From assembly GCA_039810085.1 (NCBI GenBank), contig JBDHWG010000009.1, forward strand, positions 12,609 to 76,608: 64,000 nucleotides of DNA, given 5' to 3'. A model generated the notes under the pieces. The model made no database searches. It saw only the letters and a program-made list of their open reading frames with translations, and was not told the DNA's origin. The first letter of the stretch is position 1, and each line of letters opens with the position of its first letter. This document shows positions 16,536-59,049 of this stretch, in pieces. A program made the position numbers and the translations under genes. Source of the stretch: Anaerolineae bacterium. GTDB taxonomy: Bacteria > Chloroflexota > Anaerolineae > Epilineales > JAHCIE01.

Positions 16536-16588
16536 TTCTTCTGACCAGCGCAATTCTTCTGGACGGCTCGGCAGGTCGTCATTCTGCT

Positions 16589-17644: not shown

Positions 17645-17707
17645 CTGGCTTTAGTGAACGGAGAGCTCAAGCCGTAATTATAGCCTCGCCTCACGAATTG
17701 TCGAAGG

Positions 17708-18285: not shown

Positions 18286-18287
18286 AC

Positions 18288-18318
18288 AACGAACGCATCA
18301 TAACATAATGCGTTCGTT
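18288..18318. promoter_or_regulatory. Inverted repeat AACGAACGCAT-N9-ATGCGTTCGTT immediately upstream of brnT start (putative operator)
   Basis: 11-bp perfect arms read in sequence, 3 nt from brnT ATG. Confidence 0.3.
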
Positions 18319-18652
18319 GAAACAAGGGGTTCGGTTGTACTCTATGTCGCCTAATGCTCATTTTACGTCATGAGGGCATAGTGGGGTTTTAGGCGTTGGG
18401 ATGAGGTTTTTTCAATTATGGAGAAGACGGGCGCAAGAGGGATGAGCCGAGTTTCAACCTATAACCGTCGGTCGAGCTGGCTCTAGGCCACAAAAAAAGA
18501 GAACTGACGACAGGAAGACTTGGGAGTAAAGAGAGCGCGTTTCGCGCAGAAGCACCAGTTGGCGCACTCTTCGTCCATTGTCGATCCTTTTTCTTGTCGT
18601 AGTTCTCTTTCTTCAGCGCTCCAAGCGCTGACCTCATTCCTCGCGGATGATT

Positions 18653-19471: not shown

Positions 19472-19869
19472 GTTGTTACTGTCCCAAATAGAACAGCGCC
19501 CAGAGACCTCATTGTGAGATATCCAAGCGCTGTCCTATTCAGGCAAGGAGACGGTTGAACCGATTGAGTCAATTATTTGTCCGCAAAGAATTAATGTGCA
19601 TGCAAAACAGAGAAACATCTGAGACGCACTGCCTCTGTTTCTCAATCCGCAACCTCATATTATACCCTATAGTCTGATTTATGTCAATACCAACTCCCTC
19701 TCGTTCCCTACAGTCCCCCCTCTTCCTAACCACAGTCGAGGCAAAACCACCCCTATGGCCTCCACTTCCCCGCTCTCATCTTCCTGGCAGCGGCCACACT
19801 GACTGCCTGCGGCAGTCAGACCTCTTCGGCAAACCGCCGAAGGAGCACCCGGAGCCCGAAGCGCCGTAG

Positions 19870-20140
19870 CGGAGCCGTCCTGTGGCGAAGCGGTCAGCCG
19901 GAGCGAGCAAGCGACCGGCGCGAAACGAGCGGGGTACAAGCGGACGAGGCCAGGCGAGCAGTCTGACGAGGTTCGGGGAGTCAGTCTGCGAGCCGACTAG
20001 GGCCGAAGGCCGCAGCCCGCGAGTGCAGCAGAGGAAGCAGCGAGCGAAGGCCAGCGAAGCCACGAAGACCGGCGCAGTGGAGGCGCGAAGGGTCGCCGCG
20101 AAGCGAGCGAAAGCCCCGTGCTAACGGGGCTTCAGAGGGC
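19870..20140. repeat. GC-rich non-coding tract with at least 6 GCGAAG/GAGCGAA motif repeats and several hairpins
   Basis: Direct reading: GGCGAAGCGG, GCGAGCGAAGGCC, CAGCGAAGCC, GCGCGAAGGG, CGCGAAGCGAGCGAAAGCC; hairpins CTGACTGCC-TGC-GGCAGTCAG (about 19797) and GCCCCG-TGCTAA-CGGGGC (about 20115). Confidence 0.3.
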
Positions 20141-28666: not shown

Positions 28667-28703
28667 CAAGACCTGACAGGTTTTGGAAACCTGTCAGGTC
28701 TTG
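28667..28703. repeat. Perfect 37-bp palindrome CAAGACCTGACAGGTTTTGGAAACCTGTCAGGTCTTG in the 68-bp intergenic gap between two GT-C genes
   Basis: 17-bp arms read directly; core shared with 39372-39400. Confidence 0.5.
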
Positions 28704-31700: not shown

Positions 31701-32038
31701 CGCATGCGGAACAGAAGCGCCGCCAGGCCAGCGAGCGCCTGGGCATCGACGCCGGACGGCGCGCTCGCATTCTCCGTCGCCCGGCACGTGGCGAGGACAT
31801 CGGGCGCAGCGCCGGGCGGAACGGCCAGCGTGCCCAGCCACATTGTAATGACGCCAGGGTGGCCGGTCAGAAACGTGCTGCGCGGTTGAAGCGACGCGAG
31901 CGCCTGGCCGAACGACAGCGAGCGGCACACCCAACGCAACTCGTCGGCGGCGACGAACACATCGAGGCGGCTCAGTCTTGCCATCAGCGCCGCGAGGAGG
32001 ATGACGACGGCCAGCGCGTCCAGCCAGCGACCTTTCAA
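28709..32038 (-). CDS. GT-C fold membrane glycosyltransferase (PMT_2/ArnT-like) with tandem C-terminal beta-domain repeats (paralog 2)
   Basis: 1109 aa; DEL motif after TM1, many TM helices, C-term repeats (GYDAVQATPGAPLDVTLYWKA...YKVFVHMLAPDG...GKYQIAVGWYDAAGARLP); ATGA overlap with upstream paralog. Confidence 0.75.
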   Translation of the reverse strand: MKGRWLDALAVVILLAALMARLSRLDVFVAADELRWVCRSLSFGQALASLQPRSTFLTGHPGVITMWLGTLAVPPGAAPDVLATCRATENASAPSGVDAQALAGLAALLFRMRFAPALFNWLLLIPIYWLARRLLGALAAVLGLALLAFDPFVMAHSRVFHLDATLSSLLVLSVLTLLTTRPQVEDAKRIETQRRRDAEEEHQNVSSERLSASAFLSYLSEGGESSWRWLIAAGALAGAALVQKVAAVFLWPWAVLMLVYLGWRDRRLRGVIRATLLFAVGGLIAVLLIWPSAWSNPVGTVRGVADKAAVEGGNPHAGGNVFDEEVVDDPGPFMYIVAYGFRASPWTLLGLGIVVVGVGTAVYRARRSLRQLVLSPSPFVYAVVGLASYALIFAVLISFSPKKFDRYILPMFPPLDLVAGAGLAAAVTWLAGWVAARRARASLSLARWLPVVAVVLVLVTEAAIAVSHAPYYLTYYNPLLGGGQAAVRWLLVGWGEGYDQAAAFLNTLPNANDLQVAARGVSQFAPLFVGETRSAPGFRPYQTDYIVLYLNEVQRQRNQSLVNRYYDNPDEKPLKVVSIDGIDYAWIYTNTTATAPLAYITQAAQPGDGFVVNGASLAARSTPPGMPVAQVFGHFQASDVAGALAALPPVQRLWYLRYPEGDPGAALDALREAAILESGPRKFPDVEVWRFRTAPAASQPANAALGPLSLGGWGAGGAALQAGKPEGVSLAWRVNAPVSEPLVAAVDVLDPEGGIVLTAERPLRDSALRPATTWALGTTNTTLMPLTLPATTPPGEYTLRVRLKKPNNNEAVGPVESVTLGKVSVARGAAPTKVDVPARLDADLTLVGLRLLGHGFQGDRDVKPGDTVDVPLWWQATGPVKGARVVLSVRDARGAAAQTPQSLLPVQLAPEAWQPGDVFNGIRHAKVAADAVRGPATVELQVVDESGTTLLPSPVVLGRVWVDGPTALTQPPRPPQHAAGATIGASTHLLGYDAVQATPGAPLDVTLYWKADAPTPVDYKVFVHMLAPDGSIISQVDRAPGLGHYPTSRWQAGEVVVDPYTLTVPPGTAPGKYQIAVGWYDAAGARLPIRDTSGAAQPDNRLLLDVDVQ

Positions 32039-34731
32039 GGCTTCACCGTAATGTGGCCCAGGACAGCGTGGTCGCCCTCGGTATCCGCGCCCTGAGCAAG
32101 CAGGCGCTGGAGCGTTTTGGCATCGTAGAGACCGACGCGCAAGGGGTAGCTGCCCGGCAGCGTGGACGGGTCAATCGAGATACTGCGCGACTCGATAATC
32201 GTCTCGCCCGGCTGCCACTGTGACGTGGGGCTGGCGCCGGATGCGGGCCAGCTGTCACTCTGGCCGTGAATAATGTCGTCCTCGACGTGGGCAAAAACAC
32301 TCAGGTCTGCCCCCACTTTATCCGTTGGCTGCCAGAAGAGCGTCAGGCCGAACGGCTCACCGGCTTTCACAATCGACGAGGTCAGCTCATAGCCCAACAA
32401 CCGCACCGAGCCGAGCATGGCGTCTGTGCGCATGGCGGGCGGCGCTTCCGCGAGCGCCTGGCCGATGGGGAAGGTCGGGCCGAGATATGGGTCGAAGCGC
32501 GCAGCATCCGCCAGGGTGTAGTAGCGCGGGGCAGCCACCGGGTCCCGGCTGTAGATGCGCAGCTTGGGCGCGCCGTCGGCATCCACGTCCGCCAACAGGT
32601 GATACTCCTTCTCGATGCGGTTGAGCGGAATTTTCACCGCGTCCTGCACATCCTGGGCAACGATGTAGTAGCGCGGGTTGGCGGCGGAGCGCACCGCTCC
32701 GCGCGTGTACCAGCCCGTGACCAGCGGCTCCTCGTTGCTGTCGTAGTCGCCCTGGAGCGTGCCGTCGGCGAAAAGCGAGCCGACGATGCTCCAGCCCGCC
32801 TGGTACGGGAAGCCGAAGTAGCCGCTACTCGGGGGACGATCACCATAGACGGCGGGGTACAACGGGCTGCGCGCCGCGGGATAGATGCGTTTATACTCTG
32901 GGCTGTGGCTCACGAACGCTATCCAGATGTAGCCGCCGAGCAACAAAACGAGTAGCCCGCCGACAGCCATGAGGGCAAAGCGCGCCGAGCGCCCGAATCG
33001 CGCCTGGACACCTTGCGCCAGTGCCGCCACGCCAAGGCCCGCGAGAAGCGCCGCGCCGGGCATCATGGTGTAGAAATGGGTGGTCGGCTTCTGCGTCAAG
33101 AAGCTCGCCACCAGGAACGGCCCCAGGAACCACAGGAGTGTCGCCTTCACGCCGTCGTCGAGGCGCGGCGCCAGCGCCCACAGCAAGAGCGGCAGAAAGA
33201 GAAATAGCGAGAGGTTGTACTTGCCAACGCGCAACGCTTCCGGCGCGGCGGCAGCGACCGCCAGGGCCAGCACAGGCCAGGCCAGGGCAAGCCACCGCCC
33301 GTGGCGGAAGCCACGCCAGCCGAGCCAGGCAAACACCGCGACGAGCGCCACGGCGAGCAGGACAATGTACCACGTCGAGTTGTAGAATGTCGCGCGCAGG
33401 AAGTAGTCGGCCAGCTTGTTATACAGCGGCCCACCAGCCGCCGCCGCATTGCCGACGCCGACGCGGCGGTTGATGATATAGTCAACTGTCTCACGGAAGT
33501 GGGGGTGCAGCGCGAACGGCGCGTAGAAGAAGGCCGCAATGGCCGCACATACCGCCGTCGGCGCCATCAGCCCACGCAGCCCACCCCGCCGCCACAGCAG
33601 GTACGCCACCGGCGGGATGGCGAAGACGGCCTCGTAGTGGCCCAGGCTCCCCGCCGCGACGAGCGCCCCTGCGACGACAGCCCACCGCATTCGCCCGCCC
33701 TGGTAGTAGCGCCACGCCGCCCATACCGCGACAATCGATGTGAGCGCGACGATGCTCTGGTACTGCACGATGCGGCCAAACGCCACAAAGTAGCCATCCA
33801 GCGCCAGGATCAGCGCAGCGACCAGCCCCTCACCCCCTAGCCCCCTCTCCCAAAATGGGAGAGGGGGAACAAGAGGGGCGTTCTGGCTCCCCTTCCCCGC
33901 TTGTGGGGGAAGGGGCTGCAAGAGCATGTCATCGCGAGCAGAGCGAAGCGATCCCTCACCGGGAGATTGCTTCGCTGACGCTCGCAATGACACATCAGGG
34001 CCTGACGAGAACAGCCGCCAGCCGAGCGCGCCGATGCCAAATACAGCGGCGACGTTCATCAGGGCGAAGGGCAACCGCGCCGAGGACTCGTCGATGCCAT
34101 CCGTCGCCGCCCAGACGAGCGCCGGCATGAGCACCTCGCCCGGCGCTTTCTTGTGGAAGAACAGGATTTCGCTGCGTCCCTGCCCCAACCCCGCCGCCAT
34201 CAGCATGGCGCGCGCCTCGTCGCCCTGGAACTCGGAGTAGCTCAGGAACGTCAGGCGGAAGACCAGGGCCAGGGCGACCGGGACCGCCAGCCACCACAGA
34301 GCGCGCACGCGAACAATTGCCGGACGCGCGGCGGTCGTTCCGAGGGCCAGCCAGCCCGCCAGAACGAGCAGCGCGCCGTCGAAAGCAAGTAGCACCGGGG
34401 CGCGGGTCATGGGCGTCGGCAGGTAAGCGACCGCGAGGCTCAAGACCAGAGCGCCCGCTACCGCTAGCGCCGCATCGAGGGCGAGGCGCTCCGGCCACGC
34501 GACGCTTTCGCCAGCCATCAACCGCTCGGCGACAAGCACACCGGGCAGAGCAAACAGAACGATGGCAGCCGTAGCGCGGACGAACAAGGGAACGGGGAGG
34601 AAGAGGAGGAGGTTCGCAACCAGCGCGACAGCAAGCGCAACCAGGGCAAACCATGCCCAAGGCCGCGCGGCGAGGCGTGTCGCGGGAGAAGCGGGGCCGG
34701 CGCCGGCCATCGGGAGACCCGAATCGGCCAT
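32035..34731 (-). CDS. GT-C fold membrane glycosyltransferase (paralog 3) carrying an approximately 57-aa low-complexity in-frame insertion
   Basis: 898 aa; GDE motif, TM-rich N-half, C-term LGYELTSSIVKAGEPFGLTLFWQP...VFAHVEDD...GSYPLRVGLYD repeat. Confidence 0.75.
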   Translation of the reverse strand: MADSGLPMAGAGPASPATRLAARPWAWFALVALAVALVANLLLFLPVPLFVRATAAIVLFALPGVLVAERLMAGESVAWPERLALDAALAVAGALVLSLAVAYLPTPMTRAPVLLAFDGALLVLAGWLALGTTAARPAIVRVRALWWLAVPVALALVFRLTFLSYSEFQGDEARAMLMAAGLGQGRSEILFFHKKAPGEVLMPALVWAATDGIDESSARLPFALMNVAAVFGIGALGWRLFSSGPDVSLRASAKQSPGEGSLRSARDDMLLQPLPPQAGKGSQNAPLVPPLPFWERGLGGEGLVAALILALDGYFVAFGRIVQYQSIVALTSIVAVWAAWRYYQGGRMRWAVVAGALVAAGSLGHYEAVFAIPPVAYLLWRRGGLRGLMAPTAVCAAIAAFFYAPFALHPHFRETVDYIINRRVGVGNAAAAGGPLYNKLADYFLRATFYNSTWYIVLLAVALVAVFAWLGWRGFRHGRWLALAWPVLALAVAAAAPEALRVGKYNLSLFLFLPLLLWALAPRLDDGVKATLLWFLGPFLVASFLTQKPTTHFYTMMPGAALLAGLGVAALAQGVQARFGRSARFALMAVGGLLVLLLGGYIWIAFVSHSPEYKRIYPAARSPLYPAVYGDRPPSSGYFGFPYQAGWSIVGSLFADGTLQGDYDSNEEPLVTGWYTRGAVRSAANPRYYIVAQDVQDAVKIPLNRIEKEYHLLADVDADGAPKLRIYSRDPVAAPRYYTLADAARFDPYLGPTFPIGQALAEAPPAMRTDAMLGSVRLLGYELTSSIVKAGEPFGLTLFWQPTDKVGADLSVFAHVEDDIIHGQSDSWPASGASPTSQWQPGETIIESRSISIDPSTLPGSYPLRVGLYDAKTLQRLLAQGADTEGDHAVLGHITVKP
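33826..33995. repeat. Composite palindromic element inside GT-C paralog 3 CDS: G-rich hairpins (33841-33867, 33889-33915) plus a 64-bp imperfect palindrome (33928-33991)
   Basis: CCCCCTCTCCCA-AAA-TGGGAGAGGGGG; CCCCTTCCCC-GCTTGT-GGGGGAAGGGG; GTCATCGCGAGC...GCTCGCAATGAC also seen at 50548-50610 and 59213-59249. Confidence 0.5.
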
Positions 34732-37826: not shown

Positions 37827-39878
37827 CTAGGGGTGAGGGACCGGCGTCGCCAACTGCACGTAATCGCCTTCGACGCGCTGCCCGTCCACTGTGACCGGCA
37901 GCCGCGCGCCGCTCGCCAGGTCATACATGCCTACCTGGAGCCATAGCTCGCTCGGCGCGTCAGGCGGGAGGGTGATGGAGCGTTCGTCGACGATAATCTG
38001 CCCTGGGTCCCAGGTCGAGGCTGGCGAGACGCCATGCTCGGGCTGGCCGTCGCTCTGCCCGTAGCCCTTGCCACTCGCATCCACCAGGTGCGCGAACACC
38101 GTGTAGTCGATGTCTTGCCCCGCAATGGCGCGCGAGTAGAGCGTGAGGTTAACCTTCTTGCCGTCGGTCGCCAGGGCATAGCCGAGCAGGTCGGCGGCAT
38201 CGCCGAGACGGGCACTCTGCGGGTGCTGAATCTCGGCCGGGTCGAAGCGGCGATAGAGAACGCGGTCCTTCTCGCGCATCGCCGGCACGTAGCGCGCCTT
38301 GATCCAGGCCATGTAACCGTCGAGGCGGTCCAGCCGTCCGTTCCAGAGGACGATGGCGGGCGGATTATACTTAGCCACCGTTGCGATGGCTTCCTCGTTG
38401 GTGAGCTGCCCGGTCTCGATGCGCTTGGAACTTTGCGCCGCAAGCCACGGAATCTGCGTGCGACCGGCGCGAAAAGCAATCATGGGCGGGTCGGCGACGA
38501 TGATGTCCGTCGGCGTCGTGTGCGTCTTGACCCAGTCGGCCGCCGCCAGGAGCGAGCGGTACGGGCCAGGGTCAATCAGATCGCCCAGGTCGGACGCCTG
38601 CCCCGGCGCACGCACCGCGATGAGCGCCAGGGCCGCCAGGGTAACGGCGACCGACACCGCGCCCGATTGACGCGGCGCACGCAGGCTGTCCCATACCCCG
38701 GCGACACCGACAGCGGCCAGAGCGACCAGGGGAAAAAGGAACAGCATGAAGTGATGCTTGGCGAACAGCGGGCGCTGATTGACCAGGACAAGCGCCGTGA
38801 GCGCCAGCCAGCCGAGCATGACCAGGCCGGCATAGCTCCGCCGCCGCAAGAGCGTCCACGCGCCGACAACCGCGAGCGCCGTCACGCCCAGGTTCTCGAC
38901 GGTCATGTACTCCAGAAGCCACTGGGCATACTCCGGCGTCCGGTTAGGCCAAACGTCTCGCGCGGCGAGAGGTGTTGCAAGCGCCTGCGCCATGAAGCCG
39001 CGTACATCGAAAAACAGGAGAAAGGGCGCCCCCACGAGAAGTAGGCCGACGGCCAGGGCAGCCATGCCGCGCCCCGCCTCGCGTACGCGGTTCGGCGCGC
39101 GCCAGACGCCGGGTAGGGCAAAGGCGGCGAGCGGCGCGCTGTAGAGCGCGGCGGTCAGCTTGAGCCACAGCCCCCCGCTGAGGAACACACCCGCCAGGAA
39201 CAGCCAACGCGCCCGTCCCGTATGACCATAGATCAATGCCAGAGCTACCGCCAGCGTTGCCAGACTGACAGAGGGAATGTCGTGGCTGACGGAGCGCGCC
39301 AGCCAGAAGAAATTGGGCGCGAGCGCCATAAGCAGAGGCGCGGCGACAGCGGCGATACCCGGGTTGAGCAGACCTGACAGGTTTTGAAAACCTGTCAGGT
39401 ATGTGCCGGTAATGCGATCCCGCCGCGCCGAGACGCAGATGCCGGCGGCGAGACTCGCGACGGCGGCCAGGCCGAGCAGCCCATACAGAAGAACGACGAG
39501 CCGCCCGCTCTCGACACTCTCACCGAAGACGCGGAAGCCAGCCAACAGCGACAGGGGAACGCCCGGCGGCTGGTCCAGCCAGATGTCGCTGTACAGCCGA
39601 TACCCCTGTCCCATGAGCTGCGCCTGCACAAGCTGGATGCCCTCGTCCGCGTCCCACTGCGTCGCCGACAGCCAGCGCGAGTAGACAAGCCCGACGACGA
39701 CAACCACAAGCGCAACGCCAATTACCGCCACTACCGTCGCCAGCCCCCATTGTACAAGTGGCTTATTGAATTCTTTCGTCTGGACCTCGGTAGCCAGCTT
39801 CTCTCTCCCTACCCCGCCGTTTTTCCTCTGTGTCCTCTGTGACATCTCTCCGTTCACAACGGCTTCAATGGTACGCAA
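37827..39878 (-). CDS. GT-C fold membrane glycosyltransferase (PMT_2/ArnT-like, paralog 4) with one C-terminal beta-domain
   Basis: 683 aa; WDADEGIQL motif after TM1; C-term NLTLYSRAIAGQDIDYTVFAHLVDASG...WLQVGMYDLASGARLP. Confidence 0.75.
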   Translation of the reverse strand: MRTIEAVVNGEMSQRTQRKNGGVGREKLATEVQTKEFNKPLVQWGLATVVAVIGVALVVVVVGLVYSRWLSATQWDADEGIQLVQAQLMGQGYRLYSDIWLDQPPGVPLSLLAGFRVFGESVESGRLVVLLYGLLGLAAVASLAAGICVSARRDRITGTYLTGFQNLSGLLNPGIAAVAAPLLMALAPNFFWLARSVSHDIPSVSLATLAVALALIYGHTGRARWLFLAGVFLSGGLWLKLTAALYSAPLAAFALPGVWRAPNRVREAGRGMAALAVGLLLVGAPFLLFFDVRGFMAQALATPLAARDVWPNRTPEYAQWLLEYMTVENLGVTALAVVGAWTLLRRRSYAGLVMLGWLALTALVLVNQRPLFAKHHFMLFLFPLVALAAVGVAGVWDSLRAPRQSGAVSVAVTLAALALIAVRAPGQASDLGDLIDPGPYRSLLAAADWVKTHTTPTDIIVADPPMIAFRAGRTQIPWLAAQSSKRIETGQLTNEEAIATVAKYNPPAIVLWNGRLDRLDGYMAWIKARYVPAMREKDRVLYRRFDPAEIQHPQSARLGDAADLLGYALATDGKKVNLTLYSRAIAGQDIDYTVFAHLVDASGKGYGQSDGQPEHGVSPASTWDPGQIIVDERSITLPPDAPSELWLQVGMYDLASGARLPVTVDGQRVEGDYVQLATPVPHP
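39372..39400. repeat. Perfect 29-bp palindrome ACCTGACAGGTTTT-G-AAAACCTGTCAGGT embedded in-frame in GT-C paralog 4 (encodes TGFQNLSGL)
   Basis: 14-bp arms read directly; same core as 28667-28703. Confidence 0.5.
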
Positions 39879-40018
39879 GATGTTCCGAAATCGCCAATTA
39901 GGGCAGGATTTTGACTTCGCGCCACGAGAACTCTACAATAGCCTGTCTTTTCCGCGAGCCACGCCTATGCAACCCGTTCAGCCCAGTTACACGCACACCC
40001 CGCGCCGGCAGCCCCAAT

Positions 40019-42820
40019 ATGCCGGATAATACCCTCGACCGCCTCAGCAAGCGCCTGGACGCGCACCCCCGCTGGCGCGACGTCGCCCTGGTTGCGCTGC
40101 TATGGCTCGTCGCTGCGACGTTCCTCGGCCCGGCGCTCCTGCCGGACAAGGCGCTCGTCCCCTTCGACCTGCTGACGATTACAAAGCCGTGGACGAATGT
40201 GGGCCTGCCGCCGGCGCACAACATATTGCCATCGGACGTCCTGTTCGAGAACTATCCCAACCGGGTCTTCTTCGATGAGAGCCTGCGCCAGGGGCAGCTG
40301 CCGCTGTGGGACCCCAACGCCCTCGCCGGACGCTCCCTCATGGGTGACCCCAACGCCCAGCCGTTCTACCCACTGAACTATCTGCTGTTCTGGCTGCCCG
40401 CAGCGCGGGGCATGACCCTCGCCGTGTTCATCAACCTGGGCCTGGCCGGCAGCCTGATGTTCGCTTTCCTGCGTGTGTCTGGCCTGGGCGGCCTGGCCGC
40501 CTTCCTGGGCGCGGTCACGTACATGCTCAACGGCGCGCTCGTCGTCTGGCTGGAGTACCCGCCCTTCTCTGCGACGAGCGCCTGGATACCCGGCGCGCTC
40601 CTGGGCTACGCGATAGCCGTGCGGCGGCAGCGCTGGCTCTACGCGGGCCTGGGCGGTCTGGCGCTGGGTCTTGCCTTCCTCGGCGGCCAGATCGAATACC
40701 CGGTGCTGCTCGGCCTCATCATCGGCGCGTATGGCATCCTGCTCGCGGCGACGGCCCGCCGCTGGCAGCCCTTCGGCATGGCCGTGCTCCTGGGCATCGT
40801 GGGCATTGCCACCGCAGCGGTGCAAATTCTCCCCGCCTGGGAAGCCATCCGCCTCAGCGAGCGCGTCCTCAACGACTACGCGGGCCTATTGGCAACGCGC
40901 GTGCCCCTCTCCAGCCTCGTCCTGCTCCTTGCGCCGGACTTCTTCGGCAACCAGGTCACAAGCCATTACTGGGGCGCGAGCAACTACAACGAGCAGACGG
41001 CCTACTTCGCCGTTGCGCCACTACTCCTGGCCGTCGCCGCGCCCTTCCTGCGCCGCAACCTCACCACGCTGTTCTGGGCGGCCATCGCCGTCCTTACGAC
41101 GCTGTGGGTGACCGGGACACCCCTGCTGCGCCTGGCCGAGCTAGTGCCGGGCCTGGGTTACTTTGGCCTCTCACGCCTGGTCTTCCTCTATCCCCTTGCC
41201 GGCGCGATCCTCGCCGCCAATGCGCTGGATGCCCTGATGAAGCCCCAGCCGCGCGGCAGGGTAATGCACGTGCTGGCCTTCGCCGCCGTCGCGCTGGCCC
41301 TCGCCTACGCTGCCAGTCTCGCCTACCATGCCAGGGACCTCCAGGCGCAGTGGCCTCTGCCCGTGCGCTCCTACGTCGGCCCGCTGGTCTGGCTCGGCCT
41401 TGTCACGGCAGCCGCGCTGCTGGCGGTTCGCTTCCCTCGCGCCATTGTCCTCGTCGTCGCCCTTACGGTCGTGGATCTGTTTGTATTCGGCGCGGGCTAC
41501 AACACGGTCTCAGACACCGCCTGGGCTTACCCGACCACAGATCTCATTACACATCTACGCGCCGACCGCGAGAAAGAAGTCTTCCGCATCGCCACGCTCC
41601 AGGCCGAACAGCTTGTCTTCGGCCCCAACATCCCGAATGCCCTGGGCCTTGCCGAGCTAGGCGGCTACACGTCGATCCCGCCGGCGCGCACGCGGCGGCT
41701 CTGGAGCCAGGCCGAAAACTTCGTGCCAATCCCGTGGATCAACGACAACACGCTGATCCTGCAATTCGGGCAGGTGCGCGAGCGCCTCATGGGCATGCTC
41801 AACGTGAAGTACTTCGTCGTCCCCGGCGACCCCAGTCTGCCTGAGTTCAAACTCACTGACCGCTGCGACGGCGACACGGGCGAAATCTACGGGGCACGGC
41901 GCGTCGGCCAGACGTTCACCCCGGTTCAGAACGGCCTGCACCGCATCGACGTGCGCTTCCAAACCTATGGCCGCCCCAACATAGGCAAGATCGGCCTGCA
42001 CCTTACCAACGGCCCGACGAGTGACAACCACCTGGCCTATATGCAGGTGGATGCAGCCACGATCAAGGACAACGCGCCGGTCACTCTCTTCTTCGACAAG
42101 ATCCCCGACTCGGAGAACCGGCCGTTCTACTTTTATGTCGATGCGCCCAACAGCGCGCCTGGCTCGGCCGTTGGAGTGTGCCTGGCGAACACGGGCATCC
42201 CGCGCAAGGGCCAGCGGTTCGACAACGGCCAGCCTGTCAGTGGCGCTAGTAGCCTGGCGCTCGGCGTGTACAGCCTGCCGACGCCGCTCCTCAAGCGCCG
42301 TGGCACGTGGGACGACGTGCGCGTCTACCACAACCCGGCCTATCTACCTCGCGCTTATGTCGTCTACCACGTCCAGGGCGTCGAGAGCGACGGCGAAGCG
42401 CGCGAAACGGTTCTCAATCCAGCGTTCGACCCCGGCACCAGCGCCGTCGTGGAAGCCCCGCTGCCCCCCGACATCGCCGCCCTGACCCAGAATGCGGCCA
42501 CCCCCTACAGCGAAGTTGAGGACATCGAGCACACGGCGCAGCGCGTGACCCTCGACGTCGAGACGCAACAGCCGGGGTTGCTCGTCCTCTCCGACCAATA
42601 CTGGCCCGGCTGGGAGGCGACGGTGGACAATCAGCCGACCGCCATCGTCCACGCCAACTATGTTGTGCGCGGCGTTTACCTACCCGCCGGCAAGCACCAG
42701 GTTGTGTTCGCGTTCCGCCCCCTCTCGTTCTATCTGGGCCTGGCGATAAGCCTGGCGACCGTTGCCTTCGTCGCAGCACTCGGATTGTGGGAAAGACAAC
42801 GCCGTCGAGCGTCACTGTAG
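40019..42820 (+). CDS. YfhO-family membrane glycosyltransferase-like protein
   Basis: 934 aa from ATG 40019; DPNAQPFYPLNYLLFWLP motif and multi-TM N-half typical of YfhO; large extracytoplasmic C-terminal domain. Confidence 0.7.
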   Translation: MPDNTLDRLSKRLDAHPRWRDVALVALLWLVAATFLGPALLPDKALVPFDLLTITKPWTNVGLPPAHNILPSDVLFENYPNRVFFDESLRQGQLPLWDPNALAGRSLMGDPNAQPFYPLNYLLFWLPAARGMTLAVFINLGLAGSLMFAFLRVSGLGGLAAFLGAVTYMLNGALVVWLEYPPFSATSAWIPGALLGYAIAVRRQRWLYAGLGGLALGLAFLGGQIEYPVLLGLIIGAYGILLAATARRWQPFGMAVLLGIVGIATAAVQILPAWEAIRLSERVLNDYAGLLATRVPLSSLVLLLAPDFFGNQVTSHYWGASNYNEQTAYFAVAPLLLAVAAPFLRRNLTTLFWAAIAVLTTLWVTGTPLLRLAELVPGLGYFGLSRLVFLYPLAGAILAANALDALMKPQPRGRVMHVLAFAAVALALAYAASLAYHARDLQAQWPLPVRSYVGPLVWLGLVTAAALLAVRFPRAIVLVVALTVVDLFVFGAGYNTVSDTAWAYPTTDLITHLRADREKEVFRIATLQAEQLVFGPNIPNALGLAELGGYTSIPPARTRRLWSQAENFVPIPWINDNTLILQFGQVRERLMGMLNVKYFVVPGDPSLPEFKLTDRCDGDTGEIYGARRVGQTFTPVQNGLHRIDVRFQTYGRPNIGKIGLHLTNGPTSDNHLAYMQVDAATIKDNAPVTLFFDKIPDSENRPFYFYVDAPNSAPGSAVGVCLANTGIPRKGQRFDNGQPVSGASSLALGVYSLPTPLLKRRGTWDDVRVYHNPAYLPRAYVVYHVQGVESDGEARETVLNPAFDPGTSAVVEAPLPPDIAALTQNAATPYSEVEDIEHTAQRVTLDVETQQPGLLVLSDQYWPGWEATVDNQPTAIVHANYVVRGVYLPAGKHQVVFAFRPLSFYLGLAISLATVAFVAALGLWERQRRRASL

Positions 42821-42858
42821 TGTCCCACTCAGCCAGCTCCGCGCCCAAGAACACTCTG

Positions 42859-44863
42859 TCATTTTAGTAGCATCTCCGGTGTCACCTGGACTTTGCCCAG
42901 CGACACGCTCTCGCCCAACGGTCTGCCATCCGGCCCACTCACCGCCAGGTTGTGCTGCTCGCGCGCGTCCCACATGCGCACCTGCACGTCATACCCGCCA
43001 GGCGCCAGGTCTTTCGGGAGGTCGAGGACGGTCACACCGCGCACGGGCACACCGACGGGAAAGGCGGCGGTCGCCAGCCAGGCCGTGCTCGGCGCCTGGT
43101 TGTGTGTCGCCACAACGCGGCCCGAGGCATCCACCAGGTTGACGGTAACGGTGTAGTCTCGGTCGAGCGTCTGCTCAGCCCGCCAGTAGAAGATCCAGCG
43201 CAGCGCGCCCGGCTCGTCGCCGAACGGATCGACGCCGGTGAGCGTGAGCCGGTCGGCGTATGTCGCGCCCACTGGCTGCTGCGGCGTCGGGATGGCGACG
43301 ACGGGCGACCAGTCCTTGATGTTGAAGCGCATCAGGGTGTAGCCCGGTATCTGGGTGCGGATGAACGGCTCCCCCTCGCTGCGCCGGGACAGCTCAGCCA
43401 GCACCATCCCCGTGGGATCGGCAAACTCGTGGTGCCACAGGATGACCCAGACGCGCCCGGGGTGACGCGCCAGGAGATCGTTCAGCACACGCGCGCCGTT
43501 CTCGAAGTCGTAGCCAACGTGGATGCCCCACTGGGGCGTCGTGCCCTTGTAGTAATAGTTGAAGGCATACGGCGCATCTTCGACCAGCACGATGGCGTCA
43601 TCGTCGGCGCGGGCGCGGTCCATGAGGTACTGCGCCATCCGACGCGCGTCCTCCTGCGGCGACCACGAGGTTTGCGCAGCGCGCACGGCCTCGCGTCCTG
43701 AGAAGGCGAGCGCTGCGACGAGAATGACAACGTAGGCCAGGCGAAAGACCTGCTGACGCCGCCACAGGGCCTCGAACGCGAGCATCACCAGCGCCACGTA
43801 GAGCGCCGGCGCAGCGACGATGGCATAGCGCGCCGCGAACTTGGGCGCAAGCGTTACGGCCACCCCTGTGAGAGCAATCGGAATCGCCGCCGCGAGGACG
43901 ACCAACAGCTCACGCCGCGCCAGGCTCTTGTCTCGCAGCCAGCGTCGAATCAGGAACAGCGCCGCGCCCACGACCGCGAGCCCCAGCAAGAGCAGCGCCA
44001 GACGTGTCGAACCGATGGCGAGGAAGCTGCCCAGGATGCGGCCAATGACGCCTAGCGGATCCAACTCCGCCGGGAAGAAGTCGGGGTGGGCGGCCAGCCG
44101 CGCCATCTGGGCTGCCGTAGGCGCAAGCCACGGGAGATAGGCGATGAACGCCAGGGATGCAGCCGCCAGCCAGCGCAGGAACACACGGCGTCCGGCTAGC
44201 GCCGCATAGATGAACAGGGCGGGCAGCAGAAGCGCGGTGAGGTAGAGCGTGTACAGCATCCCGGCCAGCGCCGCGCCATGCAACGCCCACGGCCACACGT
44301 CTATCCAGTTTCTGATACCCCTCTGCTCCCCCTCTCCCTTTGTGGGAGAGGGGGGTGGGGGGGGGGGTACTCCGCGTCGCCCGCAGCAGGGTTGCCACGG
44401 CTAGTAGACCCCACATCGCAGCCAGGCTGTACATGCGCGCTTCCTGCGACGTGTAGATGAGGAACGGCGATAGGGCGACCAGGAGCGCGGCGGGAACGGC
44501 CGCGAACAGCGCTGCGATGCTCGAGCGCGTGCGGCCCGCGTAGACTTCGGCCAGGGTGACGTAGGCGAGGGGAATCAGCAGAACGCCGGGCGCGAGGCTG
44601 ACCCAGCGCACGGCAAACTCGCTCTGGCCCGCGACAAGCATCCAGGCATGGAGGAGCAGATAGTACAGCGGGGGGTGCAGGTCCTCCCGCACCAGGGTGG
44701 TCATCATGGCGGGCAAGGGGCGGCCCGCGAAATTGACGCTCAACCCCTCGTCAAACCACAGGCTCGCATCGCCCAGGGACCAGACCCTAGCAGTGAAGGC
44801 GACAAGTGTCACCCCCAGCATCGCCAAGGATGCCCAGCGCAACGGGCCAAACGATTTCGTCAT
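42859..44863 (-). pseudogene. GT-C fold glycosyltransferase (paralog 5) interrupted by a single frameshift at a G11/C11 homopolymer; N-part 44368-44863, C-part 42859-44367
   Basis: ORF 43910-44863 has WFDEGLSVNFA GT-C N-terminus then loses frame at TPPPTPLS (poly-C); ORF 42859-44298 continues the TM-rich body in another frame. Confidence 0.6.
44350..44367. repeat. Homopolymeric tract G6-T-G11
   Basis: Read directly: GGGGGGTGGGGGGGGGGG; coincides with the frame switch between ORFs 43910-44863 and 42859-44298. Confidence 0.6.
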
Positions 44864-46044
44864 GTCACGCTCAGAACTTCTCGATACAGCGCCATGTGCT
44901 GCCGCGCGATATTCTCCCAGCGAAATTGCGCCGCGAGTTTCCGCGCGCCTTCACCCAGGCGAGCACGGCGCGCTGGATCCGCCAGCAGCGCTGCAATGGT
45001 GTCCGCCAGCGCCGCCGCATCCTCAGCTAGCGCGAGAGCCGCATCCACACCATCGGTCAGGCCAGGGAGCGGTCCAGGCGTCGGGTTCGTCGGGCGCGTC
45101 GCAATGATGGGCAGGCCGTGGGCCAGCGCCGCCATGAGTGTGCCGCGCTGGAGCGACACACCACCGCGATACGGTAGCACCGCGATATCGGCGGCCGTGA
45201 GCGCCGCTGAGACCTCGGCCTCCGGCAGAAAGTCGGTCCAGAGCATGGCGTCACCGACACTCAGATGGTCGGCCTGGGCGCGAACCTGCGCCAGAAAGGC
45301 GCGATTCGTCGGGTCGCTTGCCCCTACCTGGCCGCCCAGCATCAGCAGGCGTGCCGGCGTTCCCGCCGCGCGCAGCCGCGCCAGCGCATCCACCAGGATG
45401 TCGGCGCCCTTCGCGCGATTCACAAAACCGAAGTATACCAGGAGGGGAACGGCTGGGCTAATTCCGAGGCGTCCTCTGAACGCGACGCCGTCGGCTGGTG
45501 TGGCCGTCGGCGTGATGTTCGAGCCGATGGGGATGACGGCAAGGCGGCGGGCCACCGGGCGCAGCACGGCGGCATCCTCATTGTTGGTGGCGATGGTGAT
45601 GTCCGACCAGCGCGCCAGGGCGAGGGTCACCCAGTTGCGCACAGGGCCGGCTTTCGGGAACAGGTAGGGAATTCGCGTGTCGTGGTACGTGGTGACGACG
45701 GGGATGCGCTGGCGGCGCAGAAGCCAGGGCAGGGCGTTGGCGACCGGGTGCATCCCATATGCCGCCGTCTGGTACTGGATGTGGACGATGCCGGCCTTGG
45801 CCGCCGCGCCGCGCACCTGGGGCCACGCACGCCAGTTCCAGCGGCGTACAGTCCGAGAGACGGGCGGGTCGTGCGGGGCGTCAATCACAGTCTCCAACGA
45901 ACTGGAGCCGGACAGGGTCATCACTTGGCACGCCTGACCCGCCGCAATCAGCGCCCGCCCCAATTCACGCGTGTAGTCGCCCAGGCCGCCCTGGACCGGC
46001 GGGTACTCGCCCGCCACGAACAGCACCGTCGGTGGACGGATCAC
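44860..46044 (-). CDS. GT4 (GT1-like) family glycosyltransferase
   Basis: 394 aa from GTG 46044 (GTGA overlap with upstream GT2 stop); N-term VLFVAGEYPPVQGGLGDY; C-term EGLP-type motif region. Confidence 0.8.
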   Translation of the reverse strand: MIRPPTVLFVAGEYPPVQGGLGDYTRELGRALIAAGQACQVMTLSGSSSLETVIDAPHDPPVSRTVRRWNWRAWPQVRGAAAKAGIVHIQYQTAAYGMHPVANALPWLLRRQRIPVVTTYHDTRIPYLFPKAGPVRNWVTLALARWSDITIATNNEDAAVLRPVARRLAVIPIGSNITPTATPADGVAFRGRLGISPAVPLLVYFGFVNRAKGADILVDALARLRAAGTPARLLMLGGQVGASDPTNRAFLAQVRAQADHLSVGDAMLWTDFLPEAEVSAALTAADIAVLPYRGGVSLQRGTLMAALAHGLPIIATRPTNPTPGPLPGLTDGVDAALALAEDAAALADTIAALLADPARRARLGEGARKLAAQFRWENIARQHMALYREVLSVT

Positions 46045-47057
46045 GAACGCAGCCTCGACCGGAGCACCTGGGCGTAGGCGCGCATCCGTTCCCGGCGCAT
46101 CGCCCGCTTGTGGCCGAGGAGCCACTTGGCGCCCTCCTCCACCATCTGCCACACGTAGGTGGCAAGGAGGAACAGCCGCAACGTTTCGGCCATGCCCGGC
46201 CCATGCCACTTGCGATAGTAGCGCACCTTGCTCGTCTGAAAGTAGATGTGCCGCTGTGCGACGACCTGCTCAGTGCTGCGACCCTCGTAGTGTATGACTT
46301 CGGCTGTGGGTAGGTAGACGACGCGCCAGCCCGCCTGCTTGAGACGCCTACCCCAATCGACCTCTTCCGAGTACATGAAAAAGCCTTCGTCCAGCAGCCC
46401 CACATCGGTGAGCGCTGCACCGCGCACGAGCATGCACGCGCCAGTGAGCCAGTCCACGTCCTGGACGATATCGTCGGAACGGTCCGCGACGTAGAAACGG
46501 CGCAGCGACGGCTGGTTCGGCCACCACTGCTGGAAGAGGGTGCTTTCGAGAAAGGCGGTCTGTCGAGTCGGGAAGCGCCGCCGCGCGGGCTGAATGCTAC
46601 CATCGGCATAGCGCAGGCGCGGTCCAAGCAGCCCGACATCCGGGTGCGCCGCCATGTAGGCGAGCATGGTCCCCAGCGCGTCGCCGACAATCTCCGTGTC
46701 GGGGTTGAGCAGCATGACATACGGGGGCGTCGAAGCCGCGATAGCAGTGTGCGCACTACTGATGTCGGCCGTGAATACATCAGTGCGAGGCGTCTCACCG
46801 CCCTGGGGACCAAAGCCCAGCGCGCGCAGCGCCAGGTTGTTGCCGGCCGTAAAGCCCAGGTTTTGCTCGGCGCGAACCAGGTGAACCCAGGGAAACTCGA
46901 CACGCACCATGTCGGCGCTGCCGTCGGTCGATGCGTTGTCTACGACGATAACAGCCACTGCTGCCCGAGTCGCCGCGCGTGCGGCTTCCAGCGACCGCAG
47001 GCACTGCCGCAGCAGGTCACGCACATTCCAGTTGAGAACGATAATTGCGAGGTCCAC
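46041..47057 (-). CDS. GT2 family glycosyltransferase (WbbL/rhamnosyltransferase-like)
   Basis: IIVLNWN...VIVVDNASTDGS...DTE motifs. Confidence 0.8.
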   Translation of the reverse strand: MDLAIIVLNWNVRDLLRQCLRSLEAARAATRAAVAVIVVDNASTDGSADMVRVEFPWVHLVRAEQNLGFTAGNNLALRALGFGPQGGETPRTDVFTADISSAHTAIAASTPPYVMLLNPDTEIVGDALGTMLAYMAAHPDVGLLGPRLRYADGSIQPARRRFPTRQTAFLESTLFQQWWPNQPSLRRFYVADRSDDIVQDVDWLTGACMLVRGAALTDVGLLDEGFFMYSEEVDWGRRLKQAGWRVVYLPTAEVIHYEGRSTEQVVAQRHIYFQTSKVRYYRKWHGPGMAETLRLFLLATYVWQMVEEGAKWLLGHKRAMRRERMRAYAQVLRSRLRS

Positions 47058-47087
47058 GGGAGTCAGGAACGCGGGGGAGCCACGGAG

Positions 47088-48158
47088 CTACTCGTGGCGG
47101 GCCACGGTGTACGCGCCGATGTCTTCGAGCACGCGGCGCGCGGGCACATCGGGGAGAGAAGCGAGCGCAGCATTTGCACGCTCGACGAACTCGGCCGCGA
47201 CCGAGCGCGCCGCCTCGATGGCGGGCGACTCGCGCACAGCAGCGACGAGCGCATCGACCGCGGCAAGCCTGTCTGCGCCTGGCGCCGCATCGAAGTAACG
47301 GCGCAGGAAGGGCGACTCTGGTTCGGCCTCGGCGTAGAGCATCACCGGCAGTGTCACGATGCCCTCGCGGAGGTCGCCGCCGACTGGCTTGCCGACCTGA
47401 GCCTGCGAGCCGGTGAAATCCAGGATGTCGTCGATAATCTGGAACGCCATGCCCAGGTTGTAGCCGTAGTCGTGCAAACGGGCGACGATATCCGGCGATG
47501 CGCCGCCCAGCTCGCCTGCCGCTTCCGCAGCGGTTGTAAACAGCGCCGCCGTCTTGCCGTAGATGCGCTCCAGGTACGCCTCACGGCTTGGCAGGCCGAC
47601 CGGACGATTGTAGAGCTGTTGCAATTCGCCGCCGACAATTGTCTTGAGGGTCTCGGCGAATAGACTAATCACCCGCGGGTTGTCGGTCTCGGCCACGTAG
47701 CGTGCGGCCCGCCCGAACATGTAGTCGCCAGCGAGGATTGTGGCGACCGGCGTCCAGACGGTGTTGAGGGTGGGGATGCCCCGGCGGAGAACAGCCTGGT
47801 CGATGAGGTCATCGTGGACGAGGGTCGCGGTATGCAGCATCTCAAGACCAGCCGCCAGGGACAGGGCGCGCTCGGTATCGCAGGGATAGATTTTGCACAC
47901 CAGGAGGGAGACGGCGGGACGCAGCCGCTTACCGCCTGCGCTCACTAGGTGAGTCAGGACTTCGGCGAGGGGCTGGTAGGGTACGTCGGACATGTTCCGC
48001 AGTTTGGCTTCGAGCCGCGTCATCTCGTCGCGGACGAGGCCGAGGTCCGGGTGGCCGACAACGCGCGTCGGTGCGGACGAGATGTTTACCCCGCCCCCAT
48101 CGTTCGCAGTCACACCATTATTATGTCCGCCGCCCATCATCGGATGTTGCTCGTTCAT
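47088..48158 (-). CDS. Polyprenyl diphosphate synthase (trans-IPPS, IspB/hepta-octaprenyl-like)
   Basis: First and second Asp-rich motifs LVHDDLID and QIIDDILDF. Confidence 0.85.
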   Translation of the reverse strand: MNEQHPMMGGGHNNGVTANDGGGVNISSAPTRVVGHPDLGLVRDEMTRLEAKLRNMSDVPYQPLAEVLTHLVSAGGKRLRPAVSLLVCKIYPCDTERALSLAAGLEMLHTATLVHDDLIDQAVLRRGIPTLNTVWTPVATILAGDYMFGRAARYVAETDNPRVISLFAETLKTIVGGELQQLYNRPVGLPSREAYLERIYGKTAALFTTAAEAAGELGGASPDIVARLHDYGYNLGMAFQIIDDILDFTGSQAQVGKPVGGDLREGIVTLPVMLYAEAEPESPFLRRYFDAAPGADRLAAVDALVAAVRESPAIEAARSVAAEFVERANAALASLPDVPARRVLEDIGAYTVARHE

Positions 48159-48244
48159 GCCCTATCGGTTTCCCCCGCAGCTACAATTCCACCCCGCATC
48201 CTATCCTCTGATGCAATGACCACGCCGCATATTTCGTCGCGGCG

Positions 48245-49057
48245 CTAGGCGCTGAGTCGGAAGAGCCGCTCCGCCGCCGTCGTCGTTTCCTGGGCGACCT
48301 GCTCCAGCGACACGCCCCGCAGCTCGGCCAGCTTCTCCGCCACCAAGCGCACATAGACCGGCTCGTTGCGCTTGCCCCGGTGTGGATGCGGTGTCAGGTA
48401 TGGGGAGTCTGTCTCTACGACGACCCGCTCGGCGGGCCATGTCGCCGCCATCGCTTGGAGCGCTCGCGAGCTTTTGTATGTCAGCGGCCCGTCCAGACCG
48501 AGACAGAAGCCCGCCGCGAGCGCGGCATCGGCGAGCGCCGCGTCGCCCGAGAAGCAGTGCAGCACACCTAGTGGGCGACGGCGGCCATGCCACGGGTGGT
48601 GCGCTGCCCACGCCGCCAGAATGTCCCACGTCGCGGCGTGGGCGTCGTGGCCTGGCTCGTCTTTACTGCGCATGTGGATGACAATGGGCAAGCCCATCTC
48701 CACCGCCAGGTCGAGCTGCGCCTGGAATACCTGGACCTGGACATCGCGCGGCGCGGCATCCCAATAGTAGTCAAGCCCAATCTCGCCGATGGCGACGACT
48801 TCCGGATGCGCGGCCAACTCGCGCAGCTCGTCCAGCGTCGTCGGTTCCCACTCCGCTGCTGAGTTCGGGTGCAGGCCAACCGTGGCGTAGACGCCCTCAT
48901 AGCGCTTCGCAAGGGCGATAGCGGCGCGGCTCGACGGCATGTCGCTGGCAATCGTGACGATGCGCGTGACCCCAGCTTTGGCGGCGCGGGCGATCACTTC
49001 GTCGCGGTCCGCGTCGAAATGCGGCATGTCGAGGTGGGCGTGGGTGTCAACCAGCAT
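48245..49057 (-). CDS. tatD: TatD family metal-dependent hydrolase
   Basis: MLVDTHAHLDMPHFDADRDEVIARA N-terminus and conserved His/Asp pattern. Confidence 0.85.
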   Translation of the reverse strand: MLVDTHAHLDMPHFDADRDEVIARAAKAGVTRIVTIASDMPSSRAAIALAKRYEGVYATVGLHPNSAAEWEPTTLDELRELAAHPEVVAIGEIGLDYYWDAAPRDVQVQVFQAQLDLAVEMGLPIVIHMRSKDEPGHDAHAATWDILAAWAAHHPWHGRRRPLGVLHCFSGDAALADAALAAGFCLGLDGPLTYKSSRALQAMAATWPAERVVVETDSPYLTPHPHRGKRNEPVYVRLVAEKLAELRGVSLEQVAQETTTAAERLFRLSA

Positions 49058-49084
49058 CGCGTCCGCCAGTGTCCACGGTTCCGG

Positions 49085-50536
49085 TCACGCCTCAGCCTTG
49101 ACGCCGGCCAGCGCCACGCCGGCCCGCAAGATATCCTGCACCTTGTCCTGGCGCGTCGTCTCGGTGTACACGCGCATCAACGGCTCGGTGCCGGAGAAGC
49201 GAATGAGCAGCCAGCCCGCTCCGTCCAACTCGTACTTGTAGCCATCCATGCGGTTGACACGGTTGACCTTGATTCCCGCAATCTCCTGGGGGTCGTCGCC
49301 ATCAAGCCTGGCCTTGATTTCCGCCCGCTGCGATGAGGGGAAGGTCATGTCAATGCGGTCGTAGTAGTGCGCTCCGACTTTGTCGAAGAGCATCTGCACG
49401 AGCTGCGACGGCGTCTTGCCTGTGCGCACCATGAAGTCCATGAGGTACAGGCCCGCCAGGATGCCGTCGCGCTCCGGCAGGCCACGGAAGGCGAAGCCGC
49501 CGCTCTCCTCGCCGCCCATCATCGCGTTCGTCTCGACCATCTTGGGGCCGACGTACTTAAAGCCAACGCCCGTCTCATACACCGGCACGTCATACAGCCG
49601 CCCTAGGCTCTCCAACATGGAAGTGGTCGAGAGTGTCTTCACAATCGGGCCGCGCTCGCCGCGATACTCCAGGAGATACAGGGCGAGCAGGCCGTAGACC
49701 TGCAACTGGTTGATGAAGACGCCGTGTTCGTCGCCCGCGCCGACCCGGTCGGCGTCGCCGTCGGTCATGATGGCGATATCGGCGCCTACCTCGCGCACCT
49801 TCGCCAGCGCCACGTCGATGTTGGGTGGAATTGGCTCCGGCCGCGACATCTCGGGAAACACCGGGTTGCGCACATCGTGCAGGAACGTCGGTTGCGTCTT
49901 GCCACCGACCAGCAGGCGCTTCCAGTAGGGCGCGCCCACGCCCCACATCGGCTCGATCACCACCTTCAGCCCGGCGTCGCGGATCTTCTCGACGTCCACG
50001 TTGGGGTAGATGCGGCGCTCGAAGTAGGCCGGCGCCGGGTCGAACAGCTCCACCAGGCCCTTCGCCTGGGCCTCCTTAAGCGGCATCCGCCGGGCGTTCG
50101 CCGCGTCGCCGATGCGCGCCTCGATCTCTTTCAAGGCATCAGGGGCAATCGCCGCGCCAGTCTCCGAGCGCACCTTGTAGCCACAGTCCCACGGCGGGTT
50201 GTGGCTGGCGGTGATGTTAATGGCCGCCGCCGCGCCCCGGTCGACGACCGAGAACGAGATCACCGGCGTCGGCGTGCCGCGGTCGGTCAGGTGCGCCTTG
50301 ATGCCGTTCCCCGCCATGACCTCGGCAGCAGCGGCGGCGAAGAACTCGGCCTCGAAACGGTTGTCGTAGCCGACGATGACACCGCCATCGGCCGCACCGA
50401 TCAGCTTGAGATAGTCTGCGAACGCCTGGCTGACGCGGCGAACGTTGTCGAATGTGTAATCCTCGGCGATGCGGGCGCGCCAGCCGTCCGTGCCGAAAAC
50501 AATATTACCGGCCATTCCGCTCTCCACTTGTGACAA
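49085..50536 (-). CDS. Phosphomannomutase/phosphoglucomutase (alpha-D-phosphohexomutase)
   Basis: Active-site [12 protein letters not shown]; four-domain length (483 aa). Confidence 0.85.
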
Positions 50537-58861: not shown

Positions 58862-59049
58862 AAAAAAATGTCTCTCCATGCGCACAGAGAGACACTGCTG
58901 CAAGGTCTCTCATCTTTCAGGCGCTTCGCCTGCCGGAGTTGGCACCAGGCGCGGATGATCTCGGCTGGCGAGCTTACGCTCGCGTCACGATCCGGGCTGG
59001 TTGCCGGGGCTTCACAGGGCCGTTCCCTCCACCCCTCTGGATAAGAGCC
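58862..59049 (-). ncRNA. SAM-I (S-box) riboswitch with intrinsic terminator, in the leader of the mtnA-pfkB-GNAT-ahcY-metK operon
   Basis: Minus-strand RNA reads CUCUUAUCCAGAGGGGUGGAGGGAACGGCCCUGUGAAGCCCCGGCAACC...GGUGCCAACUCCGGCAGGCGAAGCGCCUGAAAGAUGAGAG, then terminator GUCUCUC-N10-GAGAGAC-AUUUUUUU. Confidence 0.8.

Follow-up and report, generated by a model that had tools for sequence, protein, structure and literature searches.

We analysed a 64,000-nucleotide stretch of a contig of an Anaerolineae bacterium (JBDHWG010000009.1, positions 12,609 to 76,608; hereafter the window), in which a gene for a GT-C glycosyltransferase was split by a run of eleven Gs (G11, which is C11 on the coding strand). 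The gene was otherwise intact, and a change in the length of the run would restore it. The run is intrinsically slippage-prone, and the split gene can be read as a genuine allele, caught at an off length, of a tract that is phase-variable in effect, a reading that we put slightly below an even chance. A real reversible off state and a miscount in the assembly were about equally likely. The choice between phase variation and sequencing error had been set out in an initial annotation of this DNA. This framing was right, but it understated the weight of error, because positive evidence of short-read failure was obtained at the site.

Frame break at the G11 tract

The tract was read as G6-T-G11 at 44350-44367, and the letters and position given for it in the initial annotation were both correct. 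The run was flanked by ...GGGAGAGGGGGGT on one side and by TACTCCGCG on the other, and the peptide across the tract in a full-length product would be ATRSTPPPPPSPTKGEGEQR. The open reading frame (ORF) at 43910-44863 was meaningful for codons 1-165 only, which formed the true N-terminus. Past C11 it ran into the nonsense sequence TPPPTPLSHKGRGG, as had been annotated. The ORF at 42859-44298, named as the continuation of the membrane protein, did hold its remainder in the +1 frame. As assembled, the loop encoded around the tract was 3n+1 nt long, and therefore the otherwise intact gene was split. Removal of one G (G10) gave a protein of 667 aa and addition of two (G13) gave one of 668 aa, in line with the claim that one nucleotide would restore about 668 aa.

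Alignment with five intact relatives placed the frame error within 44350-44368, between 'ATRS' and 'PSPTKGEGE', because in several orthologues the neighbouring hairpin is translated (PSPTRGEGE, PSPLVGEGE) in the same frame as the C-terminal half. The most probable site of both the frame error and slippage was the G11 run. It was the sole homopolymer of at least 8 nt in the window, and likewise in 206 kb made up of the window and about 140 kb of related loci. Extrapolation from the window's own G/C run-length distribution gave 0.002 expected runs of at least 11 in the window. The G11 run was not a chance feature. It also exceeded the criterion of about 8 for G/C runs, and the tract was thus long enough for slippage, as previously claimed.

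The relatives were then compared with the split gene. Intact orthologues of 666-689 aa were found at 79-86% identity (P0001-P0004), together with a closer one of 680 aa (P0121). The last 466 aa of the C-terminal part were 100% identical to P0121. The ratio of nonsynonymous to synonymous substitution rates (dN/dS) against five relatives was 0.08-0.14, and the N-terminal 164 and C-terminal 477 codons behaved alike (0.12-0.14 in the C-terminal half). Because of these values in both halves, any inactivation must be very recent. The single frame error was accompanied by no secondary lesions. An old fixed pseudogene was excluded by the six intact relatives, by the dN/dS values and by the lack of secondary lesions; the alternative named in the initial annotation, that the gene is truncated in all relatives, was refuted. 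Five or six relatives carried the repeat element described below, always in frame and free of a homopolymer. In these relatives the tail that corresponds to the tract was interrupted. The search for related loci in genomes returned only relatives at 82-83%, and exact look-up of the 317-aa and 479-aa ORFs in the protein collection gave no match; P0005, the gene call of the source genome itself, had no entry in the position index.

These data also bore on the idea of a one-way recent null allele, in which a slippage or indel accident has hit a redundant GT-C paralogue that is now becoming a pseudogene and switching has no biological role. The window holds at least five PMT_2 paralogues, which give redundancy, the loop was hypervariable among relatives, and other contingency-like tracts were not seen in the 206 kb. 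However, both halves were strongly constrained, secondary lesions were lacking, and the C-terminus was identical to that of an intact relative. In addition, G11 would revert at a high rate, whether the switch is 'used' or not, and therefore this account differs from a reversible off state in adaptive value only. We considered it improbable.

Palindromic repeat element in the variable loop

A hairpin had been annotated at 44329-44353, abutting the tract. It was present with a slightly longer stem (44328-44354), and it was more stable than shuffled sequences (z −3.7 as RNA, −4.0 as DNA). However, it did not merely adjoin the run. To judge from the copies compared, the hairpin and the G-run are parts of a single dispersed palindromic repeat element and not separate features. 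The extended stem of the element was present in the minimum free energy (MFE) fold. The hairpin arms were repeated exactly at 33841-33867 (0 expected by chance), in a second copy within a paralogous GT-C gene. Further copies were found in L002 and L007 (two loci each), L005 (a tandem pair) and L025. The copies in the window, L002/L007, L005 and L025 shared a common layout of a CCCCTC outer arm, the inner hairpin, a spacer of 1-3 nt and a G-rich tail. All of the element copies seen in the 206 kb sat inside GT-C loops. A TA dinucleotide flanked the target copy, and not copy A. Neither terminal inverted repeats with a target-site duplication nor a partner transposase were identified; no genome-wide transposase search was made.

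The tails of the copies indicated where the run may have come from. The tail was GGGGGTGAGGG (11 nt) in L001, L002 and L025, GGGTGAGGG (9 nt) in L005, and G7-TGAGGG in a paralogue. G11 filled the same 11-nt slot as GGGGGTGAGGG, and it therefore looked like the product of two substitutions, T>G and A>G. The adjoining run was also one base longer in the window (G6 against G5): L025 reads CCCTCACCCCC-A-CCCCCTCTCCC and the window reads C11-A-CCCCCCTCTCCC. On this alignment, the surplus base could equally belong to G11, to G6 or to the spacer. A long in-frame C-run in the homologue P0006 (loop 'SPPPPLP') was considered as well and rejected, as its DNA was CCCTCACCCCCACCCCC, which holds no long run.

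Depending on the homologue, the one hairpin was read as PSPTKGEGE, PLSQNGRGG, PLPEGEG or, on the reverse strand, PFWERGLGGEG. The differing frames and the two orientations therefore pointed to insertions or rearrangements that arose independently in a single permissive loop. In the predicted structure of the orthologue P0002, this loop (residues about 162-180, between two transmembrane helices) was the only low-confidence unstructured stretch, with a predicted local distance difference test score (pLDDT) of 60-71. Because the loop is unstructured in an otherwise confident GT-C model, variable lengths should be tolerated there.

The order of C11-A and then a stable hairpin in the mRNA also raised the matter of recoding. 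In such a case G11 would be real, and the full-length protein would be made through tRNA-Pro slipping by +1 on the ribosome at the C-run, or through slippage in transcription, with the downstream 11-bp hairpin as a roadblock. The MFE over the 111-nt stretch was −57 kcal/mol, and the required shift was +1. The C-run encodes proline in each of the three frames, and therefore re-pairing after the shift would be perfect; CCC-C is a +1-prone site. However, the site was not conserved in any orthologue. Every one of them was in frame and free of a homopolymer, unlike genuine programmed frameshifts, and this made recoding unlikely. Transcriptional slippage is, moreover, best documented for A/T runs. 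We regarded recoding as very improbable, the least probable of the explanations weighed.

For a slipping tract caught in its off state, the following course is proposed. An element of about 50 nt occupies an in-frame position in a loop between two transmembrane helices of a PMT_2/ArnT-like GT-C enzyme, and this loop is disordered and tolerant of insertions. In this lineage, the G-rich arm seen as GGGGGTGAGGG in relatives would have turned into an unbroken G11 that follows G6-T. Such a long G/C run would be expected to slip in replication, from general knowledge of homopolymer mutability, so that the frame would flip at high frequency. G10 and G13 would be on (667-668 aa), and G11 and G12 would be off. 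The locus would then be a de facto phase-variable gene that was captured at an off length. The features concerned are collected in Table 1.

Table 1. Features of the split gene and of the repeat element (window coordinates)
Feature	Position	Strand	Remarks
G6	44350-44355		followed by T 44356; its first five Gs end the right arm of the hairpin
G11 run (C11 on coding strand)	44357-44367		candidate site of frame error and slippage
N-terminal 165 codons of the GT-C gene (MTKS...LLRATRS)	44369-44863	minus	holds acidic motif WFDEGLS; gap-free against intact orthologues
C-terminal ~497 codons, +1 frame (PSPTKGEGEQRGIRNWIDVWPWALHG... to stop)	42859-44349	minus	ORF with start codon is 42859-44298
Out-of-frame tail of the N-terminal ORF (TPPPTPLSHKGRGG...)	43910-44368	minus	homologous to nothing
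Hairpin, 11-bp G/C stem	44328-44338 and 44344-44354		arms CCCCCTCTCCC and GGGAGAGGGGG, loop TTTGT
Whole palindromic repeat element, ~50 nt	44318-44367	+	outer arm CCCCTC, inner hairpin, G-rich tail; encodes the variable loop
Copy A of the element, tail GGGGGTGAGGGG	33826-33878	minus	translated in frame (PPLPFWERGLGGEG) in paralogue GT-C 32035-34731; opposite orientation relative to the gene

Other palindromes were observed in the paralogues. In the GT-C gene at 32035-34731, three adjacent palindromic elements (33826-33990) together encoded, in frame, a loop of some 60 aa (SLRASAKQSPGEGSLRSARDDMLLQPLPPQAGKGSQNAPLVPPLPFWERGLGGEG). They comprised a GGGAGAGGGG hairpin, a CCTTCCCC/GGGGAAGG hairpin and a longer GTCATCGCGAGC...GCTCGCAATGAC palindrome. 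Another family of dispersed hairpins (TGACAGGTTTTGRAAACCTGTCA) occurred at 28674-28696 and 39375-39397. Its copy at 39375-39397 encoded an in-frame stretch (TYLTGFQNLSGLL) of a third PMT_2 paralogue (37827-39878) and coincided with four independent contig ends (39370-39414).

Independent assemblies and the G count

Thirteen short-read contigs from about ten samples were recovered through exact-protein look-ups of the flanking GT2, GT4 and YfhO genes. They came from ENA (ERZ27298999, ERZ27299003, ERZ27299004, ERZ27299006) and Logan (SRR14610235, SRR14610236, SRR14610241, SRR14610244, SRR8929693, SRR8929705). The sample accessions gave no result in a search of the literature. Over 39370-44356 and 44348-49129 they matched the window with 0 gaps and 2 mismatches in total, one of them at T44356. 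The window was therefore accurate on both sides of the tract. Six contigs, from six samples, ended within 44348-44427, which is less than 80 bp from the run, when 0.23 were expected (Poisson p 1.7e-7). One of them (L019) halted exactly at T44356 and confirmed an unbroken link between the window-type loop and the right flank up to ...GGGAGAGGGGGGT. Another (L011, from SRR14610235) ended in G20-TACTCC. Its positions 3609-3628, where the contig itself has 20 Cs in a row (Gs on the + strand of the window), correspond to 44348-44367, and both T44356 and A44349 were read as G. This pattern would fit a post-homopolymer phasing error; as an observation in its own right, the G20 may be a systematic read error or a longer-tract variant. 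L011 independently held at least 11 Gs beside TACTCC. Since both flanks were confirmed by independent assemblies and at least 11 Gs were seen from the left, the overall architecture of the tract was real.

Several attempts to read across the run in other data were negative. The exact 53-nt pattern across the junction had no match in genome contigs, and a gapped pattern that allowed any tract length had none in JGI metagenomes, where a 29-mer shared with L005 was not matched either. Partial end-of-contig products were not in the protein collection. Exact look-up of the paralogue that carries the other hairpin copy (33842) gave no match, which was ambiguous given the choice of start codon, and the contigs obtained through an epimerase gene were too short to reach that copy.

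These results gave substance to an assembly or consensus artefact. In this explanation the gene is intact, and the true run is G10 or G13, or a slightly different sequence lies between T44356 and T44368. The Gs would have been miscounted because reads are lacking or unreliable where a G-rich hairpin meets a homopolymer. The artefact could arise from a residual long-read homopolymer error that stayed unpolished where short reads fail, or from a short-read join across the ambiguous G-run. Within about 9.8 kb, the frame error fell in the one segment that independent assemblies did not corroborate, all else being essentially identical across the 13 contigs. The cluster of contig ends, the dead end of L019 and the misread bases of L011 all pointed the same way. 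So did the pristine state of the gene and the intactness of all its relatives. By eye only, GGGAGAGGGGGGTGGGGGGGGGGG on the template strand (44344-44367, +) fitted a G-quadruplex motif, which could aid replication slippage or stalling as well as sequencing dropout. However, the contigs also broke at 39370-39414, at the other dispersed hairpin, which has no homopolymer. Therefore the breaks also reflected repeats and low coverage, and they were not by themselves proof of read failure. In addition, the run of at least 11 Gs was seen independently in L011. The high-GC part of the window was tiled by intact ORFs of 700-1150 aa, and runs of 6-7 in confident genes kept the frame, which meant that the assembly was not generally indel-prone. 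Widespread indel error in the window was rejected, as no other broken genes were found. On balance we judged an artefact to be quite possible, if short of probable.

The reading of G11 as a real off-length allele was likewise weighed, and several points stood against it. The count of 11 was supported by the window's own single assembly only, 0/13 contigs crossed the run, no tract-length polymorphism was observed, and L011 showed miscalls of an error type at the site. No other homopolymer of at least 8 was found in the 206 kb, which is a small part of the genome, and thus nothing suggested a set of contingency loci spread over the genome. Moreover, we know of no documented phase variation in Chloroflexota.

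The contig L005 (ENA ERZ27282907, 1-6760), which encodes P0121, differed from the window by 7 bases over 39381-44267 (about 99.86% identical). Past 44267 there were six clustered mismatches (44268-44283), and then the identity was 84% up to 46102, a region with the GT4 gene and the GT-C N-terminus. The pattern suggests a mosaic boundary at 44268-44283, produced either by homologous allele replacement in the glycan locus or by a chimeric contig. The boundary was 90 bp from the tract, and therefore no close intact relative was available for the segment that holds the tract. A chimeric join was rejected as the cause of the frameshift. The break in identity to L005 at about 44268 was in frame and 90 bp away, and L019 independently joined the window-type loop to the right flank. 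Elsewhere, the left ends of five contigs (L014-L018) clustered at 47284-47476, in the polyprenyl synthetase gene, which hints at a strain-variable or hard-to-assemble site.

Enzyme identity, glycan locus and known systems

The class of the enzyme was examined with an AlphaFold (AF2) model of P0002, which is 82% identical (pLDDT 93, predicted template-modelling score 0.90). Foldseek matched the fold of the model to ArnT, Pmt4, ALG12/ALG9, AftD/AftA/AftB and EmbA-B (E 1e-7 to 1e-4), and the ArnT structure 5EZM was matched at E 1.4e-7. Because of these matches, the GT-C assignment holds at the level of the predicted fold, rather than by Pfam. The restored protein scored 18.6 bits for PMT_2 (PF13231), below the gathering cut-off of 26.1. 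It had 172 homologues at E up to 1e-10, many of them with PF13231 or named 'glycosyltransferase family 39' by NCBI in metagenome-assembled genomes (MAGs) of Anaerolineae. A sequence profile run against PDB sequences returned spurious matches only. In the first-loop motif WFDEGLS, E39 was invariant and D38 was conserved in at least 90% of 55 homologues, and the motif was present in the N-terminal fragment of the window.

The neighbourhood in the window held five PMT_2 paralogues, this gene among them, together with a YfhO protein, GT2 and GT4 enzymes, a polyprenyl synthetase, a GDP-mannose dehydratase and a phosphomannomutase. This neighbourhood is a surface-glycan locus. By analogy with known systems, the gene class and the redundancy of paralogues are typical of phase-variable surface modification. 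The likeness to ArnT and the PMT enzymes (GT83/GT39) lay in the fold of the orthologue model and in the DE motif of the first loop. Genes for a polyprenyl synthetase and for a GT2 of the polyprenyl-phosphate-sugar type adjoined, a likeness in gene context only. However, the identity was just 10-18%, the restored protein stayed under the PMT_2 threshold, and this GT-C carried an additional beta-rich domain of about 250 aa at its C-terminus.

If the switch is real, its mechanism would be the classical poly-G switch of glycosyltransferase genes. Such genes include lgtA/C/D of Neisseria, wlaN/cgtA of Campylobacter jejuni and futA/B of Helicobacter pylori. The closest documented parallel appears to be pgtA. 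In both cases a gene for a surface-glycan transferase holds a G/C homopolymer of about 11 in its ORF, and a one-base change switches the product between full length and a truncated form. In Neisseria gonorrhoeae, pgtA alleles with G11 and G14 phase-vary, and other strains carry an interrupted, constitutive GGGAGCGGGG (PMC2193922). Interrupted alleles that do not slip are thus shared too, with GGGAGCGGGG in pgtA and GGGGGTGAGGG here. However, switching was observed there, and here the case is known from sequence alone. The enzymes also differ, with a polytopic GT-C here and soluble GT-A or GT-B there, as do the organisms, an uncultured environmental Anaerolineae MAG and host-adapted pathogens. 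Other contingency tracts were not found nearby, and the tract was derived from a palindromic repeat element. The phylum, the enzyme class of GT-C and the origin of the tract in an in-frame palindromic repeat would go beyond the textbook case.

The 7C tract of glpK in Mycobacterium tuberculosis offered a second comparison, as a reversible frameshift at a G/C homopolymer in a high-GC bacterium (bioRxiv 10.1101/717272). Both cases have a single homopolymer in an otherwise conserved gene, outside a dedicated contingency repertoire, and here too the loss of function would be transient and reversible. In contrast, isolates and reads showed the glpK variants directly, and the length here came from a single assembly. 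For the element itself, Rickettsia palindromic elements (RPEs) are in-frame palindromic repeats within coding genes. In-frame palindromic repeats in coding genes are also treated in a review of prokaryotic miniature inverted-repeat transposable elements (PMC10969869). The likeness was that of a short dispersed palindrome within ORFs, translated in varied frames and orientations and tolerated at permissive surface or loop positions; here there were inserts in three GT-C paralogues of one window. However, the present element was much shorter (about 50 nt), extremely G/C-rich and equipped with a G-rich tail.

The meaning of the locus depends on the count. Provided that the G11 length is real and varies, the locus would be a first documented case in Chloroflexota of a glycan-modifying enzyme subject to homopolymer phase variation. 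A concrete route from a selfish palindromic repeat in a protein loop to a genetic switch would be shown as well. If the run was miscounted, the MAG consensus would not be trustworthy at G-rich hairpin repeats with long G-runs, and 'frameshifted' genes at such sites should not be annotated as pseudogenes unless anchored reads support this. A wider proposal, which we regard as a long shot, is that G-rich palindromic elements in permissive loops of surface-glycan GT-C paralogues are the material from which contingency switches arise in Chloroflexota. Two substitutions would make a poly-G run, and an environmental, non-pathogenic filamentous bacterium could then turn one glycan modification on and off stochastically, as a defence against phage or grazers, for instance. 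Through the mosaic boundary 90 bp away, alleles would also be shuffled at this locus.

Two further features of the window were recorded. A low-GC block at 1-20000 (47-55% GC, with 0.3-0.55 GC at third codon positions, GC3) abutted the remainder, which had about 65% GC and a GC3 of about 0.8. The block may be an island gained by horizontal transfer, or this part of the contig may be mis-binned or chimeric. An S-adenosylmethionine (SAM, S-box) riboswitch was found at full length on the minus strand at 58907-59047, with a score of 85.8 bits.

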